Counted from the first letter of the stretch, positions 1 to 17,984 are shown. The stretch is DNA of 19,806 nucleotides from a virus (IMGVR_UViG_2711768067_000013:1-19806); one strand, 5' to 3'. The notes: generated by a model not told the origin, from the sequence alone. Translations and numbers: made by a program.

Positions 1-411
1 ATGCCTGCCCCCGTCGTCCTGATCCTTGCGGCCGGGCGTGGAGAGCGCTTTCTCGCCTCCGGGGGAAATACCCATAAGTGTATCGGCTGGCGTCAGTCCC
101 CGGAGGTTGCGCCTTATCGCTGGCCATTTGAAGAAAACGGGAGAACTTTCGACCTTGCGATTGAACCGCAGATTACGACTAATGATCTGCGTCTGATGTT
201 GAGGCTGGCTCTTGCCGGCGGAGGAATAACAATTGCCACTCAGGAAACTTTCAGGCCATATATTGAAAGCGGTAAGCTTGTATCGCTGCTTGATGACTTT
301 CTTCCACAATTTCCGGGCTTCTATCTGTATTTCCCACAGCGTCGCAATATTGCACCAAAGCTCCGCGCCCTGATTGACTACGTCAAAGAATGGCGGCAGC
401 AATTGGTTTAA
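1..411 (+). CDS. LysR-family transcriptional regulator, C-terminal effector-binding region (5' part lies outside the window)
   Basis: ORF runs from the window edge to TAA at 409-411. The translation (…FDLAIEPQITTNDLRLMLRLALAGGGITIATQETFRPYIESGKLVSLLDDFLPQFPGFYLYFPQRRNIAPKLRALIDYVKEW) has the usual LysR C-terminal pattern. Call is from recalled family signature, not a search. Confidence 0.6.
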   Translation: MPAPVVLILAAGRGERFLASGGNTHKCIGWRQSPEVAPYRWPFEENGRTFDLAIEPQITTNDLRLMLRLALAGGGITIATQETFRPYIESGKLVSLLDDFLPQFPGFYLYFPQRRNIAPKLRALIDYVKEWRQQLV

Positions 412-527
412 ATAGCTGCACCTGCACTGCCTGATGACAGAACAGTATTTTGATGAATTGCCAAGGTTACAATGGCACAAATGCGGCACAGGAGGAAACG
501 TGGTGTATTTAAATATGGGGTAACTCT

Positions 528-556
528 TTGATTTTAATGGTGCCGATAATAGGAGT
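528..556. repeat. Left direct repeat / candidate att site: 19-nt tRNA-Thr 3'-end core (538-556, tggtgccgataataggagt) plus ~10 bp of similar flank (ttgattttaa)
   Basis: Identical 19-mer recurs at 13601-13619, where it continues as a tRNA fragment; the upstream flank ttgatttt..taa is also shared with 13588-13600. The integrase gene starts ~140 bp to the right. Confidence 0.6.
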
Positions 557-698
557 AAAACACTCGATTAATCTCGTGTTAATGCCATCACCTACGACCA
601 TTACTAATTGATTGAATCTTATAGAAAAATCATCATTTTCTATGCGTCACAATCAATTTTCACATTACAAACGCTCCGACACTTTAGCCGGAGATTTT

Positions 699-1976
699 AT
701 GAGATACAAGCCTAACCAATACTTAATCTGTGATTCTTACGGTAACTACTATTTAAGGATCACGCTGCCTGTGTATATGCAGCCCTTTTTTGAAGGAAAA
801 AGGACGTTTGTCAGAAGTCTGCACACAAGTAATCTTCGTGTTGCACGTAGAAAGCGTGATCAGATTGCAGATGAATACCATTGCTTACGGGAGAGTGTTG
901 CCCCTGTAAACAGCACAATAGAAAACACGCTGGAACTGTTACGCAGTAAGGCTAAATACGCCAAAACAGCTACCAGAATGCAAGATACAGCGTCTTCGTG
1001 TCCGTCATTGCTTAAAATTCTTGAAATCTACCTGACAATTAACAGCACGAAGAAGAAGCCAGCCACTTTAGCTAAGGCAAGAAAAGCGGTAGAGATGTTT
1101 CTCTCCTACCGTAAAAAGCCTGATATTGCATTGCAAGATGTAAGCCGCACCACTGTTACAGGCTGGATTGAACACATGCAAAAAACTCTTTCACAACAAT
1201 CAATTGCAAATTATATCAGCCCAATGGCCCAGCTATGGGAATTAGCTTCATCACGTTACCACGATGCGCCAGAAAGGGCGCTCTCCCCCTGGCGAGGGCA
1301 TAGGCTTGATGTGGCACAAAGTAGAGAGAGCTACGAGGCATTTTCTAACAAAGAGCTATTGCAGGTGTTGCAAGTATTTTCCGGTAATTCAGCAGAAAAC
1401 AAAGAAATGATGGCTTTGTGTCTTATCGGTTTATATACAGGTATGCGGATCAATGAGATAGCAAGTCTCACAATAGACGATGTGAAAGAGATCGAAGGTG
1501 TGCTGTGTTTTGAAATCACACAGGGAAAAACGAAAGCTGCGGCACGTCTTGTGCCTGTGCATAGCCTTATCACTCCGTTGGTGTTGTCGCTGCGTGAAAA
1601 GCCTCACAATGGCTTTTTGTTCTATCACGCCAGCATTACAGAGCGTGCTGATGGTAAACGTTCCACGTGGCATACACAACGATTTACAAGAGCTAAACGA
1701 AAGGCTTTAGGGGAAAAGGGAACAGAAAGGAAAGTGTTTCATTCTCTGAGACACGGAGTAGCACAGCTTCTTGATCGAAATCAAATTCCAGAAGACAGGA
1801 TCGCCCTTCTCCTGGGCCATACACGCGGCAATACAGAAACATTCCGCACATATAGCAAAAATGCAGCTTCTCCAATAGAGCTTAAAAAATATATTGAGCT
1901 TTTACGCTACCCTGAAATAGAGAAAGGCTTATCAATCAATAAAAAATCAAATTTAAGGCGTAAAACAACGCTATAG
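699..1976 (+). CDS. int: Tyrosine-type site-specific integrase (phage/genomic-island type)
   Basis: ORF 612-1976 begins at TTG; the ATG at 699 follows a GGAG (688-691), and another in-frame ATG lies at 642. Catalytic-domain signatures are present: GMRINEI (Arg), HSLRHGVAQLL (His-x-x-Arg), LLGH, and TFRTYSK (Tyr). It sits beside the tRNA-derived repeat. Confidence 0.85.
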   Translation: MRYKPNQYLICDSYGNYYLRITLPVYMQPFFEGKRTFVRSLHTSNLRVARRKRDQIADEYHCLRESVAPVNSTIENTLELLRSKAKYAKTATRMQDTASSCPSLLKILEIYLTINSTKKKPATLAKARKAVEMFLSYRKKPDIALQDVSRTTVTGWIEHMQKTLSQQSIANYISPMAQLWELASSRYHDAPERALSPWRGHRLDVAQSRESYEAFSNKELLQVLQVFSGNSAENKEMMALCLIGLYTGMRINEIASLTIDDVKEIEGVLCFEITQGKTKAAARLVPVHSLITPLVLSLREKPHNGFLFYHASITERADGKRSTWHTQRFTRAKRKALGEKGTERKVFHSLRHGVAQLLDRNQIPEDRIALLLGHTRGNTETFRTYSKNAASPIELKKYIELLRYPEIEKGLSINKKSNLRRKTTL

Positions 1977-1984
1977 ATGTAATA

Positions 1985-2018
1985 AAGAGGCTTCAATATA
2001 GACTGATGCCTCTTTTAT
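1985..2018. terminator. Bidirectional rho-independent terminator between the convergent int gene and the 225-aa gene
   Basis: Stem agaggc (1986-1991) pairs with gcctct (2008-2013) around a 16-nt loop, followed by TTTTAT on the plus strand and an A/T-rich tract on the minus strand. Confidence 0.45.
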
Positions 2019-2056
2019 GATTATCTCGTTACAGAGCGTTTCATAGGCGTTTAAGG

Positions 2057-2734
2057 CTATTGTTTAAATACTGGCGTTACAACGTCTTGCCCTGGGCTTT
2101 TTTGATTTTTCTGTTCTGTTGTATTTACCTGCATTTTAACCTGTCCCCCTACAGATTTATTTGGTGCTGTTTTTACCGCAATTGCGCTTGTAGTTGCTTT
2201 AGAGACAAGACGGATTTGCTCAAAATCAAGAGTAAACAATAGGCTTTCGCTTGCTTCTTCTTCATAAGACATGCCAACTAACACAACGTTGTCATAATTT
2301 TTTAACTCAGTGACAAGTAGGAAAGGTTGGCGACTGTCCATCAACTGATTTAGGTATTCAAGCATAAGCATACGTCTATTGCCGTTAATTCCCGCATTCT
2401 TAATCATATCGGGATTGAGCTTCAATACGGTTTCAGAGATACGCCCCTGTAATGTGAACTTGTTATTCCGTATTTGAACATGATCACTAACTTCTGATCC
2501 TGATTCGACAGCATAGCTTGTAACGTCTGCATTTCTGCTAATTTTCGTCGATTCCACGCTATCAAATGATAATGCCTGGTAGTCATTGTAAGCAGCATTT
2601 GCACCACTGCCGAGGTTAGAGGCAATGATCGCAAAGCCGTTACCCCCTTTAGTTGTTCTACCGTTGCTATCGTTGCTTGTGCTGTTGATTTTCGCCTCAG
2701 TCGGGCGACCAATGGTTAACGGACCCATTGCCAT
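2057..2734 (-). CDS. Hypothetical protein (225 aa), last gene of the structural-like block
   Basis: ATG at 2734 with AAGGA about 9 nt upstream; 48 bp after the stop of the 613-aa gene. No recognisable catalytic motif. Confidence refers to coding status, not function. Confidence 0.5.
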   Translation of the reverse strand: MAMGPLTIGRPTEAKINSTSNDSNGRTTKGGNGFAIIASNLGSGANAAYNDYQALSFDSVESTKISRNADVTSYAVESGSEVSDHVQIRNNKFTLQGRISETVLKLNPDMIKNAGINGNRRMLMLEYLNQLMDSRQPFLLVTELKNYDNVVLVGMSYEEEASESLLFTLDFEQIRLVSKATTSAIAVKTAPNKSVGGQVKMQVNTTEQKNQKSPGQDVVTPVFKQ

Positions 2735-2781
2735 AATTTGTAATCCTTATTTAAGGGGGCTAAACAGCCCCACAGTGATGA

Positions 2782-4623
2782 TTAATAGGTTGACCCGCCT
2801 GACATAACACCCAGCGTTAATAGCTTGCTAAACTCAGCGGAGGATGCCTTTGATTTGAAGTCGATAAATTCGCTCAATCGTCCGGTGTCTGATTCGATAG
2901 TTAGCGGCACTTCTGCATTTACTTGTAATTCTGGATTGAAGTTAATAACAGGTGCAAAGGTGTAAGAAGGAGCCTTGAAAGCTTGTTGTGCTGCACTCTG
3001 TTTCAGATTTGCAATGTTTTGTCCTTCGAGACTGTATTGATTTACAGCCTGCGCCCCACCTACCGTTTCTTCTGGCATAAACCAGCTTTTAATAGTGTTA
3101 ACCAGGGAATTGCTGTTATCTGGCTTAATTGTTCCGGTGCCAGCGCCTTTATATTGATCAGGAGTGAGATTAGAAAGATTCTGCTTCATTCCTTCGTTAG
3201 ATAGTGGCGGTGCATCCCCTAAATTCTTCTGAATAGCTTCCGTCTTCTCGTCGTTTTTCATCAGCCAGTTGATTGTTTTCATTACGGCGTTAACCAATCC
3301 GCCGATAGCCTCGCCTAATTTGGTAAACATTGGCAGCATTGCAACCATGCTCTTTTTAAACTCTTCAATCACTTTCGGATCAAGAGATTTCATAAAGCCA
3401 TCAACAAAGGCGATCCCTTGTGAGTCAGAAAGCCCACTAAGTGCATTATTCAGTTCACGGAATTTAATAACGCTTTCCTGTTGTGCCTGCGTTACCCAGC
3501 GCCCTGATTCTCGTTGTTCTCGTGCTGATTGTTCCACTTCTTTAGCGGAGCGTGTCCAGTATTTAGAGGTGAGCATCAAATCATCAGCCAGATCTTCCAG
3601 ACGACTACCGATTTGTGCATCTGAATAGCCTTTAGCTACCATTCCCTGAACTGCTTTACTAACCAGACCAGCCGGATTATCAGCAAAGTCTTTTAGATCC
3701 TTTTTAGTTAGGAATCCTTCATTCATTAAAGTATTGATGCCGCTATCGCCGCCCTTCCATTCTCCTTTACCAGTTTTCTTATCAACTACATATTCAGCTT
3801 CATCATAAGATTTGGTTGCACGTTCACGCACATCTTTCATCTGATCGAGATACTTACGTTTACCTTGTTCGCCCATCATTGAATCAACGCCGTTTTTATA
3901 CGCCCATTGCTCAATATTGTTCATCTGGTTAACGTCTACACCGCCCAGCTTGGCACGGCTATACAATTCACCCAGCGTTTCAGCATTCGCAAAGCTGTTA
4001 GTAACAAATTCAGAGGCTTTGCTCATAGCCATATATGCAGCGCCAGCGCCTAAGCCGCCCAGCATAACAGCCGCAGCACCGCCGCCAATACTCCCGCTAC
4101 CCTTAACAGGTGCATAGGCTTTAGCGTGAGCGTTACGATTGCCATTAATCTTACGTTGTTGCTGTTGTAGGCGTTTCATTTGGCTATTCATACGTGCCAG
4201 ACTAATAGCGCCTCTTTCATATTGGAGGGCAATTTCTCTAGCCTGTGCAATAGCTTTATATTGTTCCGCTACAGAAAGACGGTGCAATGCGCTAATGCTT
4301 GCTCCAACGTCTAAAAGCTTTAATTCAGCCTTCTCTTTCCGTGCTGCCAGGGCTTTTTGTTCTCTTGCAACTACACGTTGAGCGGCTAATTGTGCTTTAG
4401 CATTGGCTTTATCTGCCTGTGCTTGCTTTTTAGCAATATCGTCTACGTCTTTTTTTGCTTTAGCGGTTGATTGTTTATGTGTCTTAACACGCAATTCTAT
4501 ATCTTTCACCGCCGCCATTTGTTTACGAAGTTTTTCTACTTCTGCTTTTGCTTTCTCTAATGATGGTCGGTTAACTTCGAAGGTGACAACGTTCGAGAGG
4601 CGTGCCACGTTTAGCTCTAACAT
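2782..4623 (-). CDS. 613-aa protein with an N-terminal K/A/E/Q-rich coiled-coil region (~160 aa) and a Gly/Ala-rich hydrophobic segment (GSGSIGGGAAAVMLGGLGAGAAYMAM); tape-measure-like architecture, function unproven
   Basis: Long ORF with ATG at 4623 and AGGGA upstream. The composition resembles phage tape-measure or internal virion proteins, but this is an architectural impression only. Confidence 0.6.
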   Translation of the reverse strand: MLELNVARLSNVVTFEVNRPSLEKAKAEVEKLRKQMAAVKDIELRVKTHKQSTAKAKKDVDDIAKKQAQADKANAKAQLAAQRVVAREQKALAARKEKAELKLLDVGASISALHRLSVAEQYKAIAQAREIALQYERGAISLARMNSQMKRLQQQQRKINGNRNAHAKAYAPVKGSGSIGGGAAAVMLGGLGAGAAYMAMSKASEFVTNSFANAETLGELYSRAKLGGVDVNQMNNIEQWAYKNGVDSMMGEQGKRKYLDQMKDVRERATKSYDEAEYVVDKKTGKGEWKGGDSGINTLMNEGFLTKKDLKDFADNPAGLVSKAVQGMVAKGYSDAQIGSRLEDLADDLMLTSKYWTRSAKEVEQSAREQRESGRWVTQAQQESVIKFRELNNALSGLSDSQGIAFVDGFMKSLDPKVIEEFKKSMVAMLPMFTKLGEAIGGLVNAVMKTINWLMKNDEKTEAIQKNLGDAPPLSNEGMKQNLSNLTPDQYKGAGTGTIKPDNSNSLVNTIKSWFMPEETVGGAQAVNQYSLEGQNIANLKQSAAQQAFKAPSYTFAPVINFNPELQVNAEVPLTIESDTGRLSEFIDFKSKASSAEFSKLLTLGVMSGGSTY

Positions 4624-4657
4624 GTTAATTGTTTCCCTGTATTATGATTGTTGTTTG

Positions 4658-4855
4658 TTATTGTTTTTTAGAACAGTAGTATGTAATTGCTTCAAAAGTG
4701 CTGCATCCAGTCTGAAACACACGCTGCCGCACATTATTTGCATCAATTTCTAAAAGGCGGCAAAGCGCCGATGTGTTTATAACTGATTCCTCGCTAATAG
4801 CTGCCAGTTCTTTTACAGATTTAAGAATTAATGCCTGTGAATTTTCTGTATTCAT
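4658..4855 (-). CDS. Hypothetical small protein (65 aa)
   Basis: ATG at 4855 with a purine-rich stretch upstream; lies between the 343-aa and 613-aa genes on the same strand. Confidence 0.4.
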   Translation of the reverse strand: MNTENSQALILKSVKELAAISEESVINTSALCRLLEIDANNVRQRVFQTGCSTFEAITYYCSKKQ

Positions 4856-5018
4856 TGGTTTTCTCTCACATATATATTTTTATTTGGTTTTGTAGACAGT
4901 AGAAAAACAAAAAGGGCAAAGAGATTCGTTACTGTATTTGCGCCTACAGGTTAGTTAATCCCTTTACCCTTAGCCCCGATTATTTTCAGACGATGGGGAA
5001 TCGTCTATTAACGCTTTA

Positions 5019-6050
5019 TTACGCAGCAGATCCGAAGATGATAGCTTGCGGAATGTTGTTTACTGGCAGATAAGATGTCTCAGTAACCACAGATGGGAAT
5101 TGGAATTCATCCTTGATTAGATATTGGTGATGTAACACGGCATCTTGACCTAACTCAGCATGACGCACACCAACGCCGCTATGAAGCTGGTAACACTGTG
5201 CCGCTTTATCCATTACCGGAACAATTGCGAAACCGTTCTCTCCGATGTGAGCAACAATCTCAGGAAACATTGACACATCAATAGCAGTGATCCCGCCAAT
5301 CTGGAAAGAGTCATAGGCTGGGTTAGAATCAACCATACGGGTAAACAGGGCCGTAGCACTCGCATCACCTGCATATTTCACCATGTCACTGATCAGCGGG
5401 TTAGATGACAAACCATCAGCAGCAGCGCCAGCAGCAAAGATAATTACACCAGTTCGCTTTGCAGCAAGAGCAGACCCCAGCTTTTCACTCTGTAAGCGCA
5501 CCGCTTTACGAATAGCAAGGAACGGGTTAACAGTAGTCGATGCAAAGTCGATAGCGGGTACCGTGGTTTTAGCCTGACCGTCGAGGAAGTCGAGATCACC
5601 TTGTCCGGCATATTCAGATTCAACTTTCAGTCCCAGCAGCGCGGTAATCAGATCCACTTCAACACGGTTTGCGTGTGAACGGTAATGAGCCTCAGAGAAA
5701 TCATTAACCGCTACCAGCATAGCATCAGAACGGTTTGGATATTGGCGGCTGTATTGTTCCAGGTCACGAGAAGTAACAGCGTTAATACTGCCGACGTGTT
5801 TCATCTGGAAAAGTTTGTTTGACCATTCCTGACGTTTAGAGGCGTTCCAGTCGCTTTGAGCGTAAGGCGAGGTTTCCCCAGCTACCTGCACAAACTGATC
5901 AATCAGGTCGGTAAGAAGAATGCTGTTTTCTGTATGATATTGCACATCGAACAGATCGAGATTAGTAATCAGGGTATTAAGTGCATTCTCATAAGCAAAT
6001 GGAGTTACTACCGCAGTATTAACACCAAAATATGTTGATAAATCATTCAT
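5019..6050 (-). CDS. 343-aa hypothetical protein, candidate major virion structural protein (capsid- or tail-tube-like); function not established
   Basis: ATG at 6050 with AAGGAAAA 8 nt upstream, and only 14 bp after the upstream 127-aa gene. A stem-loop follows the stop (4988-5006). No enzymatic motifs; the call rests on size and gene context. Confidence 0.6.
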   Translation of the reverse strand: MNDLSTYFGVNTAVVTPFAYENALNTLITNLDLFDVQYHTENSILLTDLIDQFVQVAGETSPYAQSDWNASKRQEWSNKLFQMKHVGSINAVTSRDLEQYSRQYPNRSDAMLVAVNDFSEAHYRSHANRVEVDLITALLGLKVESEYAGQGDLDFLDGQAKTTVPAIDFASTTVNPFLAIRKAVRLQSEKLGSALAAKRTGVIIFAAGAAADGLSSNPLISDMVKYAGDASATALFTRMVDSNPAYDSFQIGGITAIDVSMFPEIVAHIGENGFAIVPVMDKAAQCYQLHSGVGVRHAELGQDAVLHHQYLIKDEFQFPSVVTETSYLPVNNIPQAIIFGSAA

Positions 6051-6064
6051 TATTATTTTCCTTG

Positions 6065-6448
6065 TTAAGTCGTAGGGATCGCAAGTTCTTCATAACCAGC
6101 AATTACAAAGCCGAGAGATTGCAGTTTTGCAATAACACTTGCCTTTTCCATGCTGTTAAATTCAATCCCATCTTCAGCCAGAATAACGAAAGTAGGATGT
6201 GCAACCACTACGCTTTCCTGTCCTTCATAAGCCGGTTCAACTACTACGTGAGCAATATCAGATGCGGTTGTTGCTTTGGTGCCATCGGCTTTCAGCAAAG
6301 CCCCGACAATAAGATCGTCAGTGAGAGGTGAAGCCAGTTTGACGAGGCGATCTTGCAGCACTGGATCAGCAGCGTAAGCTACTACCTTACAGCGTGAACG
6401 GGAGTTATCCGCATTCACTGCTTTTAATTTTCCATATGGGTTAGCCAT
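6065..6448 (-). CDS. 127-aa hypothetical protein, possibly a head-decoration or tail-terminator-like partner of the 343-aa protein
   Basis: ATG at 6448 with AAAGGAAAA upstream, an RBS context almost identical to that of the 343-aa gene; 4-bp gap from the upstream 65-aa gene. Confidence 0.55.
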   Translation of the reverse strand: MANPYGKLKAVNADNSRSRCKVVAYAADPVLQDRLVKLASPLTDDLIVGALLKADGTKATTASDIAHVVVEPAYEGQESVVVAHPTFVILAEDGIEFNSMEKASVIAKLQSLGFVIAGYEELAIPTT

Positions 6449-6452
6449 AAGA

Positions 6453-6650
6453 TTATTTTCCTTTCAGTTGTTTAATTTTAGATTTAAGGGCATCAGCAAG
6501 ACTAACCGCATCAGCCGATTTAAATAATTGAGCAGTGGTAGAACGAAGACTTTCGGGAGTAACTCCCAACAGTGCGGCAACCTTAATGAGGTTTTCATCA
6601 CTAACAATCATCGTTTCCCCGTCTTTGCTGATAATCATTTCTTGTTTCAT
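6453..6650 (-). CDS. Hypothetical small protein (65 aa from the ATG at 6650; the track ORF extends to a TTG at 6692)
   Basis: ATG at 6650-6648 with AGGAA 9 nt upstream; first gene after the terminator-like hairpin at 6682-6731. Confidence 0.45.
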   Translation of the reverse strand: MKQEMIISKDGETMIVSDENLIKVAALLGVTPESLRSTTAQLFKSADAVSLADALKSKIKQLKGK

Positions 6651-6681
6651 AAATAACGTTCCTGTTAGTGCCAGACAAATA

Positions 6682-6731
6682 AAAAGCCCCAATGCCGTAA
6701 GAGGTTAATTCTGACCAGCAAAGGGGCTTTA
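6682..6731 (-). terminator. Terminator-like hairpin immediately upstream of the structural-like block (minus-strand sense)
   Basis: AAAGCCCC and GGGGCTTT arms (6682-6690 and 6724-6731) around a ~33-nt loop, followed on the minus strand by TTTTTATTT. The large loop makes this a weak call. Confidence 0.3.
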
Positions 6732-7326
6732 ACGTGCGGGCAATTACATAATTGATAAGTTAAACTATAAGAGGATTAAACATATCAGCAAATACACTTT
6801 TTAAATATACTTGATGATATGCTTAAAGGGTGAATAGATACTCCTGAAAACATGCTCTTAGGAAAACATGCGGAATCAATCAGGAATATCTATTCGGGGC
6901 GCGGTGGCCAACCGCTATCTTTCATGGTGTGGATGCACCAGTCAGATTTTAAGGAATCACTATTCCAATCTACTCACAGATTAAATTTTTAATAATGATT
7001 AACTACACCAACAGTAATCTACCGTTTCAGAAAATCGTTTTTACAACCAAAGCTTATAGATCCGCATTCTATAAAACCCGTTTTGCTATCAATATTTCCA
7101 AAGGTTATTGCACAATTCTTAGCTAAACTCTCTACTTGCGGCTAACGCTACGCAGATGATAGTTTTTTGACAACAACTTAATAGATTATTCTGTTACTAA
7201 CTTCTGTCATTAAATAAGAGTTTAATGATGTTAGTAAATAGTTATAAAATATAACTATCAGTGTAAGGCTCTTTAATGTTTTCGGACAAAATAAGGAGCT
7301 TTAGGATAAGCATAGATGAAAATAAG

Positions 7327-7364
7327 AGCGGGAAGGGCAAGGAGATAACACCTACCCGCTTTTA
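7327..7364. terminator. Bidirectional terminator-like hairpin in the 930-bp spacer
   Basis: agcgggaagg (7327-7336) pairs with cctacccgct (7351-7360) with one mismatch; T-tracts follow on both strands (TTTTAT plus; CTTATTTTC minus). It lies ~270 bp downstream of the 102-aa gene in minus sense. Confidence 0.4.
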
Positions 7365-7633
7365 TCAAAATTAAGCACAATGCCTAACAACATTCATCAA
7401 CACAACGTAGAAACAATCAACAATCAAAGAGGGAGTTATGATTATTCTAAAACTTCTTGAGGGGATGGAAGGTAATATTTGTTAGAGGTTAATGCCACTC
7501 AACCCTTGAGGCTATCACCTTCCATATGCAGGGATTTATGACAGTAGAAGGATTAACACCAGTCAAAACCTTTTTATCTACCCCTAATATCATTATATAA
7601 TGAAATTGTTATAAATGCAAATGATTTTCATTA

Positions 7634-7942
7634 TCACTTAGAAGAAATAGCACTTTTTGCTAAATCATCTACTAATTGCTGAATCTCTTCACTTGCAGCC
7701 TTTAACGTGCTGGCGCTGCTGCTGATGGTTTGAGTGCACAGCCTGGCATCGTCCTCTGATAGCTCTAAATCGCTCACCAGAGAGATAAAATCGTCAAGGC
7801 TTACATTCACCTTCATTAAGCTAATAACGCATTGAGAGAGCGTGTAATCGCATAAATCTGAATAGGCTTGATTTATTCTTGTTTGTAGTGAGATAGTCAG
7901 ATCTAAAAGTTGTTCCATTGCATTGCTAATATCTTCTTCCAT
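7634..7942 (-). CDS. Hypothetical acidic protein (102 aa)
   Basis: ATG at 7942 overlaps the stop of the upstream 67-aa gene (TAATG), suggesting translational coupling. Confidence 0.5.
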   Translation of the reverse strand: MEEDISNAMEQLLDLTISLQTRINQAYSDLCDYTLSQCVISLMKVNVSLDDFISLVSDLELSEDDARLCTQTISSSASTLKAASEEIQQLVDDLAKSAISSK

Positions 7943-8145
7943 TATGCGGCTTCTCCTTGTAATGCATCATTAATCATATTCAATACGATGTTAAAAGGTG
8001 TCTTGAGCGTCAGCACTTCATCACGATAACGCTCTAATGCTTCGTAGTCTTCTGTTTCTTTTGCCAGTCGGATTAACTCAGCATAGTTTTTTGCATCAGA
8101 CAGGATCATCTGAAATAATTGTGTTTCCTGTATATGGTCGATCAT
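7942..8145 (-). CDS. Hypothetical protein (67 aa)
   Basis: ATG at 8145 with AAGGAA 6 nt upstream. Confidence 0.5.
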   Translation of the reverse strand: MIDHIQETQLFQMILSDAKNYAELIRLAKETEDYEALERYRDEVLTLKTPFNIVLNMINDALQGEAA

Positions 8146-8162
8146 TGTTGTTCCTTTTATTT

Positions 8163-8549
8163 TTAGTTTGAACGTTTGTTAGATGCGAGAGTGTCGATCA
8201 GGTGCTGCATCAGATCTGTTTCTGTAACGCCGCCTACCTGATTGTTGAAACTATTAAAACCGATATAGTGCCTGTAGCTGGTAAAATTTAACAGCTGCCA
8301 TTTCTTTAATGTGCCAGGTTCTATAATCGTTGTCTTTCTTGTTCTGGGTTTGAAATACACACCATCACCCATTGATTGAATAATTTCTAATTCTTCGTTT
8401 GTAAGTGGTGGGCTGTTAGATTCTAAAATGAAGATTATCTCTTCCCCTGGAATTTCGTTATTGGTGTGTGTCGGTGGACGTTGTCTTGTTGAATTGAAGT
8501 TACTGTTTTTTTCAATACGTTTTAAGTTGTTCTTTTTCTTTCTTCCCAT
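8163..8549 (-). CDS. Hypothetical protein (128 aa), basic N-terminus
   Basis: ATG at 8549 with AGAGGGA upstream. Confidence 0.5.
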   Translation of the reverse strand: MGRKKKNNLKRIEKNSNFNSTRQRPPTHTNNEIPGEEIIFILESNSPPLTNEELEIIQSMGDGVYFKPRTRKTTIIEPGTLKKWQLLNFTSYRHYIGFNSFNNQVGGVTETDLMQHLIDTLASNKRSN

Positions 8550-8645
8550 TTTCCCTCTTTTTATGTGGATTATAAAAACTGAATGCCATAGTTACGATGA
8601 ATATCGCCATAAATGCATTTGCCATATGTATTGCCCGATCTGTTG

Positions 8646-8903
8646 TTATTGATTGTTTGTGATAAACAATTCAAAATCTTTGTTTAATTTCAAAAGACGA
8701 AATGTAGTGTGGTTAATCCCTTCATAATCCAGCACACCGAACGATGTAAAATGATTTACGTGTTGTGCGCTGTAGCCGCCTAAACTACAAAAGCTAACCA
8801 CTGTCGGTGGTGAAAACTCTATTTCCAAAATAGCTTTTAAAATGTTGTATCCGCTTTCAGTTATTTCAATAGTTTTGTTTCCTATAGTGATGTTATAAGT
8901 CAT
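8646..8903 (-). CDS. Hypothetical protein (85 aa)
   Basis: ATG at 8903 with AAGGAG 6 nt upstream. Confidence 0.5.
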   Translation of the reverse strand: MTYNITIGNKTIEITESGYNILKAILEIEFSPPTVVSFCSLGGYSAQHVNHFTSFGVLDYEGINHTTFRLLKLNKDFELFITNNQ

Positions 8904-8912
8904 TTATTCTCC

Positions 8913-9587
8913 TTAGAATGGTATTGAATCGTATATTTCACTTTTTTCTCTTAGAGATATTATCAGATCGTGAAAAGCCTGTTTCTCAAGATAGATATTC
9001 TTTGAATCTAATGCTCGTTTTACAAAATCTTCTGTTTCTTCGTGCGGTGGCTTCTTGTTATCAAGGGAAAGAAGCCAGTTAAAAATCTTTTCCGGGAACT
9101 CTGATTCCTGTATTTCTTCTTCAACGATGATTTCTGAAACATTCAATATTTCATTAGATTCGTTTTCTTTCTCAGAAGGATCAGGTAGTGATGACTCTCT
9201 AGGGGGAGTAATATGTGCATCTGTGAGAGGTAGCGCACGTAATTTTAATGGACGTTTTGGGATTCGTTCTCCGACCTCTTCTAAAAGACCGATTTTAATC
9301 ATAAGACCAATCAATTCATTAACTGTCTTACGGCTACAGCCACAAACTTTACTTAACTTCGTTTGTGTTTCAAAACATATCCCCCCTGATTTCTCCCAAT
9401 CTGAAACATAGCAATATAATTTTTGCATTTCTGCACTAAACTTCGCTTTTCCATCCTCAATATTTGAGGAGTAGATGAATTCAATCTCACAAAAGTAGTG
9501 TGGTATATTCAAAGTTCGGTCTTTAATTTCTCCTGTTTGTTGATCAACATACTGGTATTTTTCACGAATCAATTTAATTTTAGACAT
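8913..9587 (-). CDS. 224-aa putative DNA-binding protein (winged-helix-like segment SRKTVNELIGLMIKIGLLEE); candidate regulator or replication-initiator-like protein
   Basis: Track ORF 8913-9644 starts at GTG; the ATG at 9587 has a strong AAGGAG 8 nt upstream. The C-terminal half is acidic. Function is inferred from the motif only. Confidence 0.5.
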   Translation of the reverse strand: MSKIKLIREKYQYVDQQTGEIKDRTLNIPHYFCEIEFIYSSNIEDGKAKFSAEMQKLYCYVSDWEKSGGICFETQTKLSKVCGCSRKTVNELIGLMIKIGLLEEVGERIPKRPLKLRALPLTDAHITPPRESSLPDPSEKENESNEILNVSEIIVEEEIQESEFPEKIFNWLLSLDNKKPPHEETEDFVKRALDSKNIYLEKQAFHDLIISLREKSEIYDSIPF

Positions 9588-9640
9588 TAGAATTATCTCC
9601 TTATAAATCACGCTTAATGCGCTACTAAAGTGAATGAGGA

Positions 9641-9808
9641 TCACTTACCCTTTTTTTGTTTGATGTTCTCTGCTGCTTCAGTAATGATTTCTAACATCAA
9701 ATCACTGACCATAATTTGCCTTTTCTTGGCTTCAGCAAATAAAATCTTGAAAATTTCAGGGTCAACGTGTAGGTAAGTGCGTGGAATTGGTTTCTTGGTT
9801 TCGCTCAT
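9641..9808 (-). CDS. 55-aa ribbon-helix-helix-like small protein (MSETKKPIPRTYLHVDPEIFKILFAEAKKRQIMVSDLMLEIITEAAENIKQKKGK); absent from the ORF track because it is under 60 aa
   Basis: Hand-translated: ATG at 9808-9806 with AGGAGAAGGAG upstream, TGA at 9643-9641. A predicted strand followed by two helices fits Arc/CopG-type repressors. Confidence 0.45.
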   Translation of the reverse strand: MSETKKPIPRTYLHVDPEIFKILFAEAKKRQIMVSDLMLEIITEAAENIKQKKGK

Positions 9809-9829
9809 AGTTTTCTCCTTCTCCTGTTA

Positions 9830-10012
9830 TTATTCTTTCTCTGCTCCTGCCTTACGCAGTTCATCAATAATTTTTAGTGCATCGTCAAAACATTTTTCAC
9901 GCTCTGGATAACCACAGCGTCGCGCTGTGTTCCTGTTCATCCTTACTTTAAAACGATTGATCTCACCACGTTTCCAGGCTTCAACTACATCCTGGGGAGT
10001 GAAATACTTCAT
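9830..10012 (-). CDS. Hypothetical protein (60 aa), first gene of the minus-strand array
   Basis: ATG at 10012 with AGGAGG 7 nt upstream; 21 bp before the RHH-like ORF. Confidence 0.5.
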   Translation of the reverse strand: MKYFTPQDVVEAWKRGEINRFKVRMNRNTARRCGYPEREKCFDDALKIIDELRKAGAEKE

Positions 10013-10134
10013 TAATTAACCTCCTATTCTATTTGGTTAAAAGAAAAAACACCTTGCAAGCCTTGTTGGGCTTCAAAGTGCGGTGCATTGGTTTAATTAC
10101 TTAGAGGATAAGAATGTTTTCTGTCCCTAATATT

Positions 10135-10163
10135 ACTTTACCACGACTAAAAGCTTTTGTCAA
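10135..10163 (-). promoter_or_regulatory. Candidate sigma70 promoter for the minus-strand array (TTGACA, 17-bp spacer, TAAAGT)
   Basis: Minus-strand TTGACA is the reverse complement of 10158-10163; TAAAGT is the reverse complement of 10135-10140. Motif match only. Confidence 0.3.
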
Positions 10164-10324
10164 CCCCTATCCATAAAAATATTGATCATTTTCAGTGTGT
10201 TATAATTTTTCTTAGCAATTCGTGCTCTTACGGGTGCTCCTATTCTTCCTTATTCTCTAAAACGCTCTAAAACGCCCTCTGACGAGGTTTTGATAAATAC
10301 AATACATTCACTTATGTAGAGGCT

Positions 10325-10780
10325 GTTTAGCTCGCCAGAGGCTTATTTAAGGGGCTTATTTTGTATTTGTTAGGTATATGGGAAGATGATGATAGATAAA
10401 ATCTAATTTCAGACATCTTATAAAATACCTGTAAAGCTCCTCAGAAGCTCTATAACGAGCTAATCTATTACCGCTAAGTGTTTCCCTGCCTTATATACGT
10501 TTAGCTCGCCTACGGCTTGATTTAAGCGGTAGAATCTTATTTAACCTTCAACTACTAAAACCATTCTTTCTTTTTTGTTTGTTGTTGGTTGTTGTCTGTG
10601 TCTATGTGCTAACATCGCTAACGCGTAGCACACAAGGTTATTGCACTCGTCAGAGTATTGCACAATAGATTTTCTCTTAAATAGATTGATGATCGTTAGA
10701 TTGGCGTAAGCCTCATCAATGGAACTATTGAAGCGCACAGCGCAAGACTATTTAGCCTTACGCAAGCCGTAGGCTATTTG
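10325..10780. repeat. Repeat family in the noncoding region: two direct ~28-31-bp copies (10325-10352, 10499-10529) and one inverted, itself palindromic copy (10749-10780)
   Basis: Copy 1 gtttagctcgccagaggcttatttaagg; copy 2 gtttagctcgcctacggcttgatttaagcgg; copy 3 reverse complement contains GCCTACGGCTTG. A TTG/TGT-rich tract (about 10565-10610) and several CTAAC pentamers lie between copies 2 and 3. Confidence 0.5.
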
Positions 10781-10961
10781 CACATAGTAGATTACATATT
10801 CGTTGTGAGCGGCATTAGCGAACATATATCTACTAACTAACATCAACAAACAAAAACTATGTGTTATGACAAGCAGTCTAACGACTAACACTCTAACTTG
10901 TGCAAGGTTCTGGCGAATGCCAATAGATTAAGGGATAGTCAAAGACTCCCTAACGGGTATA

Positions 10962-11045
10962 CCTATAATTATTCTTATAAAGATAAAAAAGAATTATATT
11001 ATATAGTTTAATAGTTAGTTTTATTATTAGTATTATAGATGTTAG
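10962..11045. other. Very AT-rich tract next to the iteron-like array; candidate DNA-unwinding element
   Basis: About 85 bp of almost pure A/T directly upstream of the palindrome array. Confidence 0.35.
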
Positions 11046-11053
11046 TCTTATTG

Positions 11054-11224
11054 TGTAACCTTTCGTTACAACCAATCATCTGCCGATGTAACGTATCGTT
11101 ACTACCGATGTGTAATATCGTTACATTCAATAATTAGTCTATGTAACGAATCGTTACTACAAAATTTCTTACAGAGAGTATTTCAGATAGCTGAATGTAA
11201 CCCATCGTTACATCCATCGTTACA
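11054..11224. repeat. Iteron-like array: five palindromes with a TGTAAC / GTTACA core (11054-11070, 11087-11103, 11111-11125, 11142-11158, 11196-11212) plus an extra half-site (11216-11224); two units form a tandem 22-bp repeat (11083-11126)
   Basis: Read directly, for example TGTAACctttcGTTACA, GTAACGtatCGTTAC, GTAACGaatCGTTAC and TGTAACccatcGTTACA. Could be a replication origin, a recombinase res-like site or a repressor operator. Confidence 0.6.
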
Positions 11225-11661
11225 TCCATTTATCACATAACATCTGTGCAATGATCTTCTAAAAGTGTTTCTTACTATCAAAAATTAAACATCTAAAACA
11301 GGCTTAAATTCAATGTAATTGATGATTAATCCCTGTGTAATTCCTACGTAAAAATTCAATGAAAAGTAGCTTAAAAGTGCAATTCTTACTTTCTTCACTT
11401 TTACATCACTTTCGCAAAGCCTTGTGTAATGCGGCATATAGCGCATCACTGCAAAATTGTTGCTCAATAAACGTTCTATCATTTGTCGAACAAGTTTTCT
11501 TTAATGCAACAAAAAATTATTTTTTCAAAATAAACACACCATTTAATAGCTTGCTAATTTTACCAAAACGTAACTACATGCTTCTCATGCAAGACGTGTA
11601 GTGATAAAGCAGGCTAAATCACCACACTAAAAACCTTCGAATTTCGTAGTGAAAAAAGTCC

Positions 11662-11691
11662 TTTACACACCTAATCAACACGATCAATAAT
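11662..11691 (+). promoter_or_regulatory. Candidate promoter for the serine recombinase (TTTACA, 18-bp spacer, AATAAT)
   Basis: Motif match ~35 bp upstream of the ATG at 11727. Confidence 0.3.
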
Positions 11692-11726
11692 CACTACACA
11701 CAAATCAACACAGAAGGAAAATGAAA

Positions 11727-12278
11727 ATGGCTAATATTGGATACATTAGGGTATCGACTGTGCAACAAAACACAGACCGTCAATTAGCTGGAGTAACTCT
11801 TGATAAAGTCTTTGAAGATAAAGCGTCAGGCAAGAACACTCAGCGCCCACAGTTTGAGGCAATGATGAACTATGTGCGGGAGGGTGACGTGTTACACGTC
11901 CATAGTATTGATCGCCTTTGTCGTAATACAGCCGACCTTCTGGCAACGGTTGAGCAATTAACAGAGCGCGGCGTGTCTGTGCATTTCCATAAAGAAGACT
12001 TTAAGACAGGGAAGAACTCTCCCGCAGGGAATATGATGCTCACAGTGCTTGCAGCAGTGGCACAAATGGAACGTGAAATGATGCTTGAGCGGCAACGTGA
12101 AGGGATCGCCGCAGCTAAGGCCGCTGGGCGTATAGCAAAACGTGGTAATGGAAAAGCAATTGATCGAGCAGGAATTGCTGCCGCTCTCGCGAATGGTGGA
12201 TCAATTCGGAGCGTAGCAAAAGATTTCAGTGTCAGCACACAGACGGTGCAACGTATCAAGAAAGAGCAGGAAGCGTAA
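11727..12278 (+). CDS. Small serine recombinase (resolvase/invertase family, ~183 aa)
   Basis: N-terminus MANIGYIRVSTVQQNTDRQ carries the resolvase catalytic-Ser motif; a C-terminal helix-turn-helix-like region (SIRSVAKDFSVSTQTVQRIKK) follows. The ATG at 11727 is better spaced from the AAGGA than the ATG at 11721. Confidence 0.85.
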   Translation: MANIGYIRVSTVQQNTDRQLAGVTLDKVFEDKASGKNTQRPQFEAMMNYVREGDVLHVHSIDRLCRNTADLLATVEQLTERGVSVHFHKEDFKTGKNSPAGNMMLTVLAAVAQMEREMMLERQREGIAAAKAAGRIAKRGNGKAIDRAGIAAALANGGSIRSVAKDFSVSTQTVQRIKKEQEA

Positions 12279-12618
12279 TGCCTCCTGATATTTGAGAATT
12301 GTCGCTGCGTGGACCTGACGCCGCTGATCTTCTCGTTAAGCGATGATCACGTATGCGCCGATTTCAGAGAAAAAGACAGTAACTGAACTCACTATGAAGG
12401 CTAAACGCATCTTTACACTTGATGAAAACGTTCAAAAAACAACCTAACCCCAAAATTCAACAAATTGCAACACATTGTTTTTAAAAGAAAATTAAATCTA
12501 CATCAAATATTGGTTGACGTAGATTGAGGTGAATAGTAGACTATTAGGGTAAATTACCACCCTTGCAACATCATTTAATGCATGTTCTAATCTTCCTATC
12601 GTAAAACCGGAGGAAGTT

Positions 12619-12777
12619 ATGCATTTACTTTCAAAACATCTTCACACTATTCACTTTCTCGTTATTGATGTATTCGTTGTGGCTATTAGTTACCGCATTT
12701 GCATCGCTTCCAGTGAAGAGATGGACGCTGTTGCAATTATTGCTCAAGCAATGGCGATGTTAACTAAACGACTTTAA
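12619..12777 (+). CDS. 52-aa small hydrophobic protein (MHLLSKHLHTIHFLVIDVFVVAISYRICIASSEEMDAVAIIAQAMAMLTKRL); not in the ORF track
   Basis: ATG at 12619 with GGAGGA 5 nt upstream; contains a predicted membrane-like helix. Confidence 0.4.
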   Translation: MHLLSKHLHTIHFLVIDVFVVAISYRICIASSEEMDAVAIIAQAMAMLTKRL

Positions 12778-12843
12778 TAATTTCACTATCAGGTGCATAA
12801 ACACATCTTTGATCGCTGGATGTGTTATGCGCCTACTGGTGGT

Positions 12844-12996
12844 TCAATCCTTAAGCCATTTCAACTCACTAAGGAGTTTTCTTTCTTCGTTCTCTCGCTG
12901 TTTACGCTCTAGCCAGGCTTTTCCCTCTGGCGTAGACAGGAACTTACGAGCGTGAATCTTGCGGTTATTACGTTTTATAGCTGCAATGTTTTTCAT
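12844..12996 (-). CDS. 50-aa highly basic small protein (MKNIAAIKRNNRKIHARKFLSTPEGKAWLERKQRENEERKLLSELKWLKD); not in the ORF track
   Basis: Hand-translated: ATG at 12996-12994 with GAGG upstream, TGA at 12846-12844. Convergent with the 52-aa ORF. Confidence 0.4.
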   Translation of the reverse strand: MKNIAAIKRNNRKIHARKFLSTPEGKAWLERKQRENEERKLLSELKWLKD

Positions 12997-13600
12997 CGTG
13001 TGCCTCTGTATTCATATGAAAATTAACAAGTTACATACTACACAGGGAGACTACGCATAAAACACAATACAAGTAAAGATACATTTTCAAGACAATAGGA
13101 GCCATAAAGCGCCTTTGATGGTTATACCAAAAAATAAGCGCCGTAGGCGTATCCACTAAAAGGGCTTTTTCACAAAAGCTATGAAGTCTTAGCAGTTCTT
13201 CTCTTATCAGGCACCCGTTGTACTCCGGTGGACGAAACCGTGCTAGAGCTTGATTCTTTCCCGATCAAGTTAGGTTTTGAAGAGGTGGGCTTTGATCCAC
13301 TATTGCACTTAAAACTCTTCCCATCATTTAGCCTGTTTATCCTCTGCAACGTCTCACGACGTGTAGCATCATTGGACACCGCGCCAGGTGTGGAACATCT
13401 TGCTAAGAGTTTTGGTAGAAGGTTTAGAGACGGTGGCACGTCTTCCAGCTTCAAAGGAACTTGTTACGAGGTTGAGCCTGGGAACTACTCGCCCATACGT
13501 GTTACACTACCAAAGCCCATAACAACGTATAGGCGTTTGTAAGTGATAACAGAAGATACAATTTCTTAGAGAAGTTAAGCTAAGTTATTGATTTTCTTAA

Positions 13601-13646
13601 TGGTGCCGATAATAGGAGTCGAACCTACGACCTTCGCATTACGAAT
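13601..13646 (-). tRNA. Truncated tRNA-Thr (CGU anticodon) 3' fragment, 46 nt (anticodon loop through T-arm, acceptor 3' strand and CCA); att-site remnant, not a functional gene
   Basis: Reverse complement reads ATTCGTAATGCGAAGGTCGTAGGTTCGACTCCTATTATCGGCACCA, with the GGTTCGA T-loop and CCA end; sequence diverges from tRNA after 13646. As I recall it, this matches the 3' part of E. coli thrW. Confidence 0.7.
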
Positions 13647-13951
13647 TATAAGAATCCGCTTCTAATTCAAAGCATTACCCCATCAACACTGCGCTCACAC
13701 GTCCCACCACATCAAAACATGTAAAGCCTTGCAAGCCATTGCGAGGCCTTATGTGTCTCAGTTTTGTCCCACCTTGTATTACGACTTACATAGCCAATGA
13801 AGATAAACGTGACGACAAACGGCGCAGCAGTCTTCTTTTCCTTCATACTTTCCCCACCCAGCATGCATACCTTTATGCCATAACTGAAGTTTATGTCTGT
13901 TATGAGCGAAAAGCAGACATTACACTAAATTATTTAGGTTTACTTTTATCA

Positions 13952-14824
13952 TTACATTTCTAATGCTTTTTCTCTGCTAATTGATCCTTCACCATTGCAG
14001 GTTCTGCAATCTAATTTTATATTCCTGCAGTCAGGACAAGTAAATTTTTCATAATTAGAAAGATTCACCTTTGCAGCAATATATCTTTTTACGGATCCCA
14101 TTCCATTACAGATCGGACAATCTTCTCCCGCTAAACTGCCTTTTCCATTACATAAAGGGCAAGTTACAGTGGATATCACTTCATTTTCATTTTCATAAAT
14201 AAAATTGTTGAAATTTTGGGCGTTTATTGTGCTTAGTTGAACTTTTTCAATTTTTTTTATGTGATGTTCAAAATACTTTTTAATTGCCTTCTTAAGATCC
14301 TCTTTAGACGATTTCCATTGTTCTGGTGAGATCCTAATCGATTGAAATCCTTCGTTACTAGTTATTACTGCATCACGCTTGTAAGTAGACTTAATTTTAC
14401 TTTCCACATAATGAGCTATGTGGCCATCATACTCGATGCCAATAGCAGCAATCTCAACCAAATCTTGACCAATCCATCTATTTAGTCTAAGGACAAGGTC
14501 TATTGCCCAAGGCTGGGCTTTTGGGTTTATATTGCCAACCTTATACTGAGGCTCGATATAAACAATATGTCCGTTTGGGAATTGACCTTTCAGAGTTATT
14601 CGTCGTGGTGAATTTTGAAAACTATCGATTTCCAATGGACTAAACTGAGATATGAGGCCGGCAATTACCTCTATCTCAGCCTGAGATGTTTTTTCCACTC
14701 CTTGTAAACTAATAAGACCGATAGCTACTTGACGGTTAGTGGCTGGCTCAATCCTTTTAAATAGTTTCTTCTGATTATTACTAAAATTATTTTTGATAAC
14801 TTCAAGTGTTTCATCTAGTTCCAT
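13952..14824 (-). CDS. PD-(D/E)xK-type nuclease-like domain fused to a C-terminal DnaJ-type zinc finger (four CxxCxGxG-like repeats)
   Basis: Track ORF starts at GTG 14833; an ATG lies at 14824. Candidate nuclease motif D...IGIEYDGHIAHY (DUF559/Vsr-like). C-terminus has CPLCNGKGS, CPICNGMGS, CPDCRN and CRTCNGEGS. AT-rich gene. Confidence 0.65.
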   Translation of the reverse strand: MELDETLEVIKNNFSNNQKKLFKRIEPATNRQVAIGLISLQGVEKTSQAEIEVIAGLISQFSPLEIDSFQNSPRRITLKGQFPNGHIVYIEPQYKVGNINPKAQPWAIDLVLRLNRWIGQDLVEIAAIGIEYDGHIAHYVESKIKSTYKRDAVITSNEGFQSIRISPEQWKSSKEDLKKAIKKYFEHHIKKIEKVQLSTINAQNFNNFIYENENEVISTVTCPLCNGKGSLAGEDCPICNGMGSVKRYIAAKVNLSNYEKFTCPDCRNIKLDCRTCNGEGSISREKALEM

Positions 14825-14928
14825 CTCACCCACTCTATAAACTGATTATCCATATAAACTACATTATCATTTTTAACTGCTCAACATAGATTAACATAGC
14901 GCGATGCTAACAGTGTCAACTCCTGGCA

Positions 14929-14950
14929 CAGGGCTGTTGTTGCAGCCCTG
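14929..14950. other. Perfect 8-bp palindrome with 6-nt spacer (CAGGGCTG ttgttg CAGCCCTG) between the recombinase stop and the nuclease-ZnF gene
   Basis: Read directly; no flanking T-tract on either strand, so probably not a simple terminator. Confidence 0.5.
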
Positions 14951-14956
14951 ACAACC

Positions 14957-15559: not shown

Positions 15560-15595
15560 ACTCAAATCTCCTGCAATGTGGGAGATTTGAGTATG
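15557..15595. promoter_or_regulatory. Perfect 15-bp inverted repeat with 9-bp spacer (CATACTCAAATCTCC tgcaatgtg GGAGATTTGAGTATG) covering the recombinase Shine-Dalgarno and start codon
   Basis: Arms 15557-15571 and 15581-15595 are exact reverse complements. In the minus-strand mRNA the hairpin would sequester GGAG and AUG. Confidence 0.5.
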
Positions 15596-15765
15596 GTTGT
15601 CCCTTATGAGCAAATCGCAGACGTAACATCAAGTTCATAGCTACCCTGGAGCACCTTATTATCCTGTATAACGATAAGTTGGGAAGCCAGTGGCCTCACA
15701 GTGTCCCCAAGATGGTGGTGTCTCTGCACCAAAGATGCGCTAGTTCAAATGTTAGTAAATATAAT

Positions 15766-16677: not shown

Positions 16678-16925
16678 TTGTTAACTCCCAAGCGTTGAGA
16701 TATTTTTATATCTGTATTGTGGGCTTATTATAAGCGAGTGTAATTATAATATCATACTAACAGACACAACTTCCGCTTCTGGTACATAGCAGACCAGAGA
16801 CACTGGCGTAAAGCCATGGAGGATCGGTGGGAGGAGGTAAAAATCCTCTCATGCAAAAAATACGCAAAATCGATAACAGTTGGAAATCATTCAATACTCG
16901 CACTATCGGAAGTTCACCAGCCAGT

Positions 16926-16958
16926 CGTAGCACGTTCTTGCATACGACGTGGCTACGG
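16926..16958. repeat. Degenerate second copy of the pin terminator hairpin (direct repeat of 17947-17982), flanking the GIY-YIG gene on the left
   Basis: cgtagcacgttcttgcatacgacgtggctacgg aligns with ccgcagcacgatcttcttgcatacgacgtgctacgg, with small indels. Confidence 0.5.
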
Positions 16959-17054: not shown

Positions 17055-17924
<870 letters not shown>

Positions 17925-17982: not shown

Positions 17983-17984
17983 TT

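Follow-up and report, generated by a model that had tools for sequence, protein, structure and literature searches.

The 19,806-nucleotide stretch IMGVR_UViG_2711768067_000013:1-19806, hereafter the window, is a piece of Escherichia coli chromosome that contains an integrase island and one arm of a prophage, both associated with the gene thrW for tRNA-Thr(CGU). We consider it very likely that the island (positions 536-13619) is an integrative element of about 13.1 kb inserted in the 3' end of thrW, with the tRNA on the minus strand, and that it belongs to a family of putative phage satellites published by Barth, Dunham and Seed in 2023 (PMC10448857). In this model, the tyrosine integrase of the island (699-1976) would have recombined a core of 19-21 bp, leaving a copy of the thrW tail at either end. 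A second element, a prophage of about 40 kb with a longer thrW core of 46 bp, would lie between the island and the functional thrW, and therefore the tRNA-proximal core of the island would be embedded in a displaced 46-nt fragment (13601-13646). Such a layout would account for an integrase island standing between two tRNA fragments without a tRNA, with thrW as a shared landing site. Every arrival at thrW would shift the earlier tRNA tail farther off, which is routine genome biology and an ordinary tandem at a tRNA hot spot.

Tandem insertions at thrW

The 19-mer TGGTGCCGATAATAGGAGT occurs exactly twice in the window, at 538-556 and 13601-13619 on the plus strand, and no third copy is present in the window even when 2 mismatches are allowed. 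Its reverse complement equals the last 19 nt, CCA included, of E. coli thrW, for which the annotated tRNA-Thr of strain STEC1588 (L001 17493-17568) served as the reference. The right copy equals thrW from 13601 to 13646, exactly 46 nt that extend into the anticodon loop, and diverges beyond, and the left copy diverges from thrW after 19 nt. On the other side the identity between the two copies reaches 2 nt further, making 21 nt in total (536-556 = 13599-13619). Neither copy is an intact tRNA, and ARAGORN and Rfam at the gathering threshold found none in the window; Rfam at this threshold matched no RNA family at all. The initial annotation of this DNA had described the two exact copies, the 46-nt tRNA-Thr(CGU) 3' end on the right, the immediate divergence on the left and the lack of an intact tRNA in either, and the comparison with the annotated thrW agrees with it on each of these. 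It had also pointed to a similar flank before both repeats, which we recover as the imperfect extension TTGATTTT(CTT)AA, or TTGATTTT..AA, ahead of each copy.

The sequences on the two sides of the repeats can be assigned to their sources. Positions 528-537 are the native chromosomal sequence TTGATTTTAA directly downstream of thrW, which abuts the intact gene in genomes with an empty site. The adjoining 538-556 (minus strand) would be the distal att copy of the island, that is, the final 19 nt of thrW in displaced form (21 nt with 536-537), as the repeat, the thrW comparison and a match to a published att sequence suggest. At the other end, 13588-13600 is a flank, TTGATTTTCTTAA, that resembles the native thrW-downstream sequence and adjoins intact thrW in STEC1588 with one base changed (G for A at window 13599). 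More broadly, the 40 nt to the left of the right repeat (13561-13600) equal, with one base different, the DNA beside intact thrW in STEC1588; this genome has the island only, and therefore the flank is island DNA. The 46-nt thrW fragment itself (13601-13646, minus strand) would serve two elements, its first 19 nt as the tRNA-proximal att of the island and its whole length as the distal att of the prophage. The same 46 nt with the same right flank are also found at the Sp1/Sp2 junction of E. coli O157:H7 Sakai and in strain IZSBS22 (L002). A motif TTGATTT(T)..AA lies just outside the tRNA in the native thrW-downstream sequence, at the island end and at the prophage end alike, and therefore both attP sites resemble the few bases past the tRNA 3' end.

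To define the unoccupied state, a synthetic empty junction was assembled from window 237-537, intact thrW and the proA flank, and it was searched in 5426 complete E. coli genomes. In 948 of them it was found as one piece, with 99.9% identity over 100% of its length. Therefore, all the DNA between position 537 and thrW is inserted. Three occupied states were also observed. In the island-only state (STEC1588, O104:H4 outbreak strains and others), window 1-13646 runs straight into the remainder of an intact thrW, and proA and proB come next. In the prophage-only state of strain E275a, the yagP flank is followed by the 46-nt fragment and then by an arm 99.9% identical to window 13608-19806, and about 40 kb further along come the prophage integrase, intact thrW and proA. 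Strain IZSBS22 has both elements in the order of the window, with intact thrW past the prophage. The island thus presents direct repeats of a tRNA 3' end, an integrase 143 bp from the core and empty-site alleles, as expected of an integrative element.

These data leave almost no room for the explanation that both 19-mers are chance matches, or parts of an unrelated larger duplication, with core chromosome between them. The shortness of the left copy (19-21 nt) is all that speaks for it. The 19-mer had 0 matches in 200 dinucleotide-preserving shuffles, it reproduces the 3' end of thrW exactly, the region is bracketed by no further long direct repeat, and the middle section of the island is present in just 296 of the 5426 genomes; the empty site in 948 genomes already refutes this explanation.

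The four states of the locus thus agree with the earlier suggestion of insertion at a tRNA site, for which an empty site in related genomes and a full tRNA further to the right had been proposed as checks. The full tRNA is found in E275a and IZSBS22, about 40 kb on and beside the prophage integrase. By the layout of these relatives, intact thrW should lie beside proA, to the right of the window and about 40 kb from its edge, in line with the earlier placement of the tRNA outside the window to the right of the prophage. Where the initial annotation left a choice between tandem and nested insertions, the arrangement is tandem and not nested, because the prophage in E275a terminates at the 46-nt fragment. 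The order of arrival cannot be told from the structure because either order yields an identical product. Neither of the two outcomes named beforehand as fatal to this idea, contiguous core DNA or a larger duplication, was encountered, since empty-site alleles exist and no other long repeat brackets the region.

Tandem occupancy of thrW is already known from O157 Sakai, where the tandem prophages Sp1 (lambda-like) and Sp2 (P4-like) are annotated at this gene. Sakai and the window share the order of intact thrW, prophage with int, 46-nt fragment, second small element and yagP, and the 46-nt fragment with its flank TTATAAGAATCCGCTTCTA is identical in both. However, the second element in Sakai, Sp2, belongs to the P4-like satellites, with genes for primase, psu and sid, and is not the island of the window, in which the P4-like satellite genes (P4-type primase alpha, sid, psu, delta) had no matches. 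The 46-nt identity in the window and the integrase beside intact thrW in E275a and IZSBS22 place the prophage among the thrW prophages of the Sp1 type.

The chromosomal flank on the left is a truncated LysR-family gene, of which the 3' part remains (yagP-like; 1-411, plus strand; Pfam LysR_substrate E 1.4e-14). It lies downstream of paoD and is annotated as a partial LysR gene in loci L001, L002 and L029. As a side observation, the thrW-yagP junction is empty in a record that bears the name E. coli DH5alpha, although CP4-6 is the prophage normally present at thrW in K-12 strains; a wrong strain label or a deletion is a possible cause.

Island genes and the published family of putative satellites

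Barth, Dunham and Seed reported 224 putative satellites in E. coli and its relatives, with decoration, capsid, tape-measure and baseplate-hub proteins and a tyrosine integrase beside att (PMC10448857). [quoted passage not shown] Table S6 of that paper gives an att_WT sequence, ACTCTTTGATTTTAATGGTGC(C)GATAATAGGAGTAAAACACTCGA, and lists O104:H4 strains; the sequence equals window 524-568. From its gene content and att site, the island appears to be a member of this already known family, whose members are predicted satellites of phi92/phAPEC8-like lytic coliphages (Stephanstirmvirinae). The idea of an undescribed satellite family was rejected accordingly, as both the family and the att sequence are in PMC10448857. 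Our literature searches turned up no experimental work on the E. coli elements since then.

The shared features are the genes for the major capsid protein, tape measure and hub, the tyrosine integrase beside att, and the tRNA site; for the decoration protein there is a candidate gene by position only. As in the published family, the N-terminal part of Rep is homologous to a phage T5orf172 protein, and capsid, tape-measure and hub genes are present with most head and tail genes missing. There are also differences. Because a prophage stands in tandem with it, the island of the window does not adjoin an intact tRNA; and iterons are unmentioned in the published account, whereas here three iteron types co-vary with Rep alleles.

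The integrase (699-1976, plus strand, 425 aa) adjoins the distal att and matches Pfam Phage_integrase (2.7e-17), DUF6538 and Phage_int_SAM_5 as well as phrog_1 (1.3e-32); it is 99% identical in STEC1588 and IZSBS22. The putative structural genes lie on the minus strand. They comprise a Dit-like tail or baseplate hub protein of 225 aa (2057-2734; PF21821 Dit_like 1.6e-27), a tape-measure-like protein of 613 aa (2782-4623; phrog_16051 tape measure 2e-31) and a major capsid protein of 343 aa of the lambda gpE/HK97-fold type (5019-6050). The last is predicted to be an HK97-fold capsid because three comparisons agree. PF03864, the lambda gpE capsid family, is matched by 11 of 14 family members (capsid homologues at 45-48% identity). 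In a Foldseek search with an AlphaFold2 model, used for the fold class only, the top 50 PDB matches are all HK97-fold shell proteins (phage capsids, encapsulins and a gene transfer agent). The capsid protein of phage inny aligns to it in hhalign with an E-value of 5e-5 over 230 columns.

Among phage proteins, the nearest homologues are in Stephanstirmvirinae myoviruses of 145-151 kb (phAPEC8-like and phi92-like), at 49-53% identity for the Dit-like protein and about 31% for the tape-measure-like protein. In these phages, the tape-measure and Dit genes are adjacent and downstream of the decoration and capsid genes, which is also the order in the island. The 127-aa protein encoded upstream of the capsid gene (6065-6448, minus strand) is a possible decoration protein by position. 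It resembles inny gp95 (130 aa) in position and size, the BLASTP match between the two covers 23 aa only, and no family in Pfam, PHROGs or NCBIfam matches it; this position is labelled Dec in PMC10448857. In tblastn against 50,697 phage records, neither the capsid protein nor nine concatenated small open reading frames (ORFs) had a match.

The family shows a recurrent gene order: a 60-aa ORF, a 55-aa ORF, Rep, small ORFs, the 127-aa ORF, capsid, a 65-aa ORF, the tape-measure-like gene, sometimes Dit, and a convergent integrase. Members at 41-56% capsid identity were found in Klebsiella, Citrobacter, Buttiauxella, Kosakonia, Kluyvera, Phytobacter, Scandinavium, Raoultella and a second E. coli lineage, and further capsid homologues are named from Cronobacter, Enterobacter and Pluralibacter. 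Their integration sites are the 3' ends of tRNA-Thr(CGU), tRNA-Gly(CCC), a tRNA-Ser-like gene and others. By these homologies, the family reaches many genera beyond E. coli, a small addition that goes slightly past the published account.

With cfPICI, the island has in common that a small integrative element encodes its own HK97-fold capsid protein. It differs in that searches of Pfam, PHROGs and NCBIfam found no terminase small subunit, prohead protease, portal, head-tail adaptors, alpA or Pri-Rep in the island, and in that its tape-measure and hub genes are not among the cfPICI signature genes in PMC10448857.

Rep alleles, iterons and a possible satellite life cycle

The putative replication initiator, Rep (8913-9587, minus strand, 224 aa from MSKIKL), is of a type that we call allele A. 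HTH_36 and weak PHROG replication-initiator matches suggest a winged-helix DNA-binding domain in its N-terminal 140 aa. In PMC10448857, the Rep domain was assigned to RepA_N with HHsearch. Upstream of Rep is a 55-aa ORF common to the phages (9641-9808, minus strand; 98% identical to inny gp185), followed by a 60-aa ORF (9830-10012, minus strand), which family conservation and a promoter-like site upstream (10163-10135, minus strand) suggest to be the first gene of the leftward operon. The stretch 9737-10437, consisting of the 60-aa ORF and ORF-free upstream DNA, is the best conserved at the nucleotide level in the island family: diverged E. coli elements share 84-86% identity with it, and it is the one part to which the Klebsiella element can be matched as DNA. 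This stretch probably serves as the main control region.

A putative origin (10980-11229) was located by repeat analysis. It begins with an AT-rich part (10980-11050), next to which, at 11056-11229, stand the type-A iterons, (A)TCGTTAC(A); six of them are direct and two are inverted. In thrW islands that are otherwise about 96-98% identical, other repeats stand at the iteron position: GGAAnTCATTTCCTAGGT repeats in allele-B islands and TAACAnnnTTCTGTGGGGGTG repeats in the allele-C island. Rep allele A is accompanied by a TCGTTAC iteron cluster in 6 of 6 elements, four of which are at other tRNA sites with different integrases, and allele B by GGAAnTCATTTCC iterons in 2 of 2. Clusters of the type-A or type-B motif were found in none of the eight elements that lack alleles A and B. 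The three Rep alleles therefore co-vary with three iteron types.

The same domains are present in the lytic phages. Window 9196-9820 (625 bp) is 95.5% identical at the nucleotide level to inny 120158-120781. The inny protein gp184 (367 aa; L005 3289-4392) shares 88% identity with the island Rep domain (allele A) over aa 1-140 and 89% with the corresponding domain from the island of STEC1588 (allele B) over aa 160-251, and its C-terminus is a T5orf172/GIY-YIG-type nuclease (MUG113 E 2e-4; phrog_681 endonuclease E 3.9e-18). In Mt1B1_P17 gp053 (L014 1414-2400) and in phage BI-EHEC, the first domain is of allele C, with 99% identity over 104 aa to P0120, which is the Rep from a third variant of this thrW island, and the domain is followed by a second domain of allele B and by the same nuclease as in gp184. 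In muut gp154 (L031 1497-2495), a fourth type of first domain precedes an allele-B second domain and, again, the same nuclease. In all four phage nucleases examined, the second domain is 93-94% identical in nucleotides and 88-90% in amino acids to the allele-B Rep (L001 13256-13516). These identities suggest capture of the Rep DNA-binding domain by T5orf172 nucleases of Stephanstirmvirinae phages. According to the Figure 8 legend of PMC10448857, the second DNA-binding domain of each nuclease is without a detectable satellite partner; our comparison gives a matching island allele for it, which is a small addition to the published account. As a side observation, records of about 146 kb labelled as Campylobacter phages (A150, A145 and C3) and as Acinetobacter phage ABPW7 match in the same way as phAPEC8-type coliphages, and the host labels of these four records may be unreliable.

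Co-variation of Rep with the iterons, together with the phage copies, is the pattern expected of an initiator, an iteron origin and nucleases that copy the specificity of the initiator. A comparable case is the Vibrio cholerae phage satellite PLE, whose iteron origin is cut by the nuclease Odn of phage ICP1 (Barth et al. 2021, eLife; PMC8263062). The predicted logic is alike: a chromosomal island exploits a lytic myovirus, Rep and iteron modules are interchangeable alleles, and a phage T5orf172 nuclease carries the Rep DNA-binding domain. The nucleases differ in that Odn has one T5orf172 domain and one RepA_N domain (PMC10448857), whereas those of the coliphages have two DNA-binding domains. 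No sequence relationship between the island and PLE was seen, though no search aimed at one was made.

On phage infection, the island would be expected to excise, to replicate from its iterons and to be packaged with parts of the helper, and the phage nucleases would cut the island origin as Odn cuts that of PLE. For integration, PLE relies on a large serine recombinase, and its capsid protein is that of the helper. In contrast, the island of the window integrates at a tRNA gene by a tyrosine integrase and brings capsid, tape-measure and hub genes of its own. Judged from the gene content, it is plausible, at somewhat below an even chance, that its life cycle as a satellite is fully functional. 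We put forward more tentatively that the island is a working satellite that would build its own small capsid and supply tape measure and hub, and that the phage nucleases would be origin cutters of dual specificity, each domain matched to a different Rep/iteron allele (A, B or C), with predicted cut sites in 11056-11229. If this is true, the satellite would set tail as well as head dimensions.

A different account of the shared DNA-binding domains is ordinary homing-endonuclease evolution, in which the island borrowed its Rep domain from a phage and there is no antagonism at the origin. T5orf172 proteins are common as putative homing endonucleases in T5-like and other phages, and the gp184 nuclease domain is homologous to those of T5-like phages; transfer may have run in either direction, and binding of Rep or gp184 to the iterons is predicted. 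We consider this account improbable. Three different island Rep alleles recur in one and the same phage gene with identities of 88-99%, each protein having a tandem of two, and the island alleles co-vary with the iterons. No iteron cluster is present in the inny genome itself, where ATCGTTAC has 4 copies in 147 kb against 4.5 expected. The pattern also fits the experimentally proven case of Odn and PLE (PMC8263062), and Barth et al. 2023 (PMC10448857) read it alike.

Several results weigh against the satellite reading or the assignments on which it draws. Excision, replication and packaging are deduced from gene content and the phage nuclease chimeras, and the domains may have moved from island to phage or the reverse. 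Portal, protease, terminase, excisionase, sheath and tube were all without a match in the island in Pfam, PHROGs and NCBIfam. The HTH_36 match of Rep is below the gathering threshold in hmmscan, and the Pfam scan at E <= 0.01 gave no RepA_N match. The window's own capsid copy is below the Pfam PF03864 threshold, its AlphaFold2 model is of low confidence (pLDDT 54), and the decoration-protein assignment is by position. No genome in the collection spans at least 80% of the window, and the place of intact thrW was read from relatives. Whole-element contigs of about 12.3 kb break at the tRNA repeats and are not circular. Contigs of 12.3-13.4 kb had been considered as excised circles and were rejected, the overlaps of 17-23 nt being part of a tRNA-Ser-like tail and the contig ends therefore assembly breaks.

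Some of these results would also suit an ordinary temperate prophage in decay, of which a few structural genes are left and which has no life cycle of its own as a satellite. Capsid, tape-measure and hub genes are present, yet portal, terminase, protease, sheath and tube are not; about 2.6 kb of the island is without an ORF of at least 70 aa; and the evidence for mobility is presence/absence polymorphism only. This explanation is quite improbable. The same compact gene set and order recur in at least 10 genera and at different tRNA sites, at 41-56% capsid identity, and independent decay is not expected to give such a recurrence. All island ORFs compared have tblastn matches to STEC1588 or IZSBS22 over their full length or nearly so, Rep and iteron alleles are swapped as modules, and lytic phages have near-identical Rep domains fused to a nuclease.

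Beyond its borders, the island is of interest as a member of a family of putative satellites that is published and experimentally untouched. Phages inny and muut, which match it, were isolated on E. coli K-12, and therefore the island could serve as the E. coli counterpart of the Vibrio PLE/ICP1 system. The mapped iteron alleles and the two-domain nucleases provide concrete DNA targets for such work.

Accessory genes and the prophage arm

Four small conserved ORFs (102, 67, 128 and 85 aa) occupy 7634-8903 on the minus strand between the structural genes and Rep. They have no family matches, and the 128-aa ORF is present in 10 of 13 family loci compared. To their left, 6700-7630 (about 930 bp) is without an ORF of at least 70 aa; a gap is found at the equal position in other members, and its sequence is not conserved as DNA. 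At the other side of the origin, an accessory small serine recombinase of the resolvase/invertase type (11721-12278, plus strand, 185 aa; Pfam Resolvase 1e-38, phrog_125 DNA invertase 1.9e-62) is absent from IZSBS22. PADLOC defence models gave no match to the seven island proteins scanned. At 9800-11720, the E-value mode of Rfam found no tRNA or credible RNA family, and a mir-784 match was judged spurious.

A perfect inverted repeat of 25 nt (5409-5433 / 7708-7732) lies inside the capsid gene and the 102-aa ORF, which are on the same strand. The arm at 7708-7732 looks like a templated patch that turned an imperfect match into a perfect one, because it differs at about 6-7 clustered positions in the closest islands, those of STEC1588 and IZSBS22. 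A role as an invertase site or in regulatory pairing was considered and dropped, as the perfect form is absent from these islands and private to the window copy.

The remainder of the window (13647-19806) is the distal arm of the prophage of about 40 kb, which Pfam, PADLOC and the 99.9% identity to the E275a arm suggest to be of myovirus type. Near the prophage att, 13952-17924 holds a cluster of likely defence or accessory genes: a REase_MTES_1575 and DnaJ-type zinc-finger protein of 293 aa (13952-14833), a short tyrosine recombinase of 218 aa (14957-15613), an Mrr-like nuclease (15766-16677) and PD-T4-3 (17100-17924; PADLOC E 2.7e-140). Related prophages have other cargo at this place, for example a TrlF ATPase in IZSBS22. 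The arm also contains a tail fibre gene and tfaE, and the DNA invertase gene pinE (17985-18546) is split by a frameshift into two overlapping ORFs; the same frameshift is annotated in E275a.

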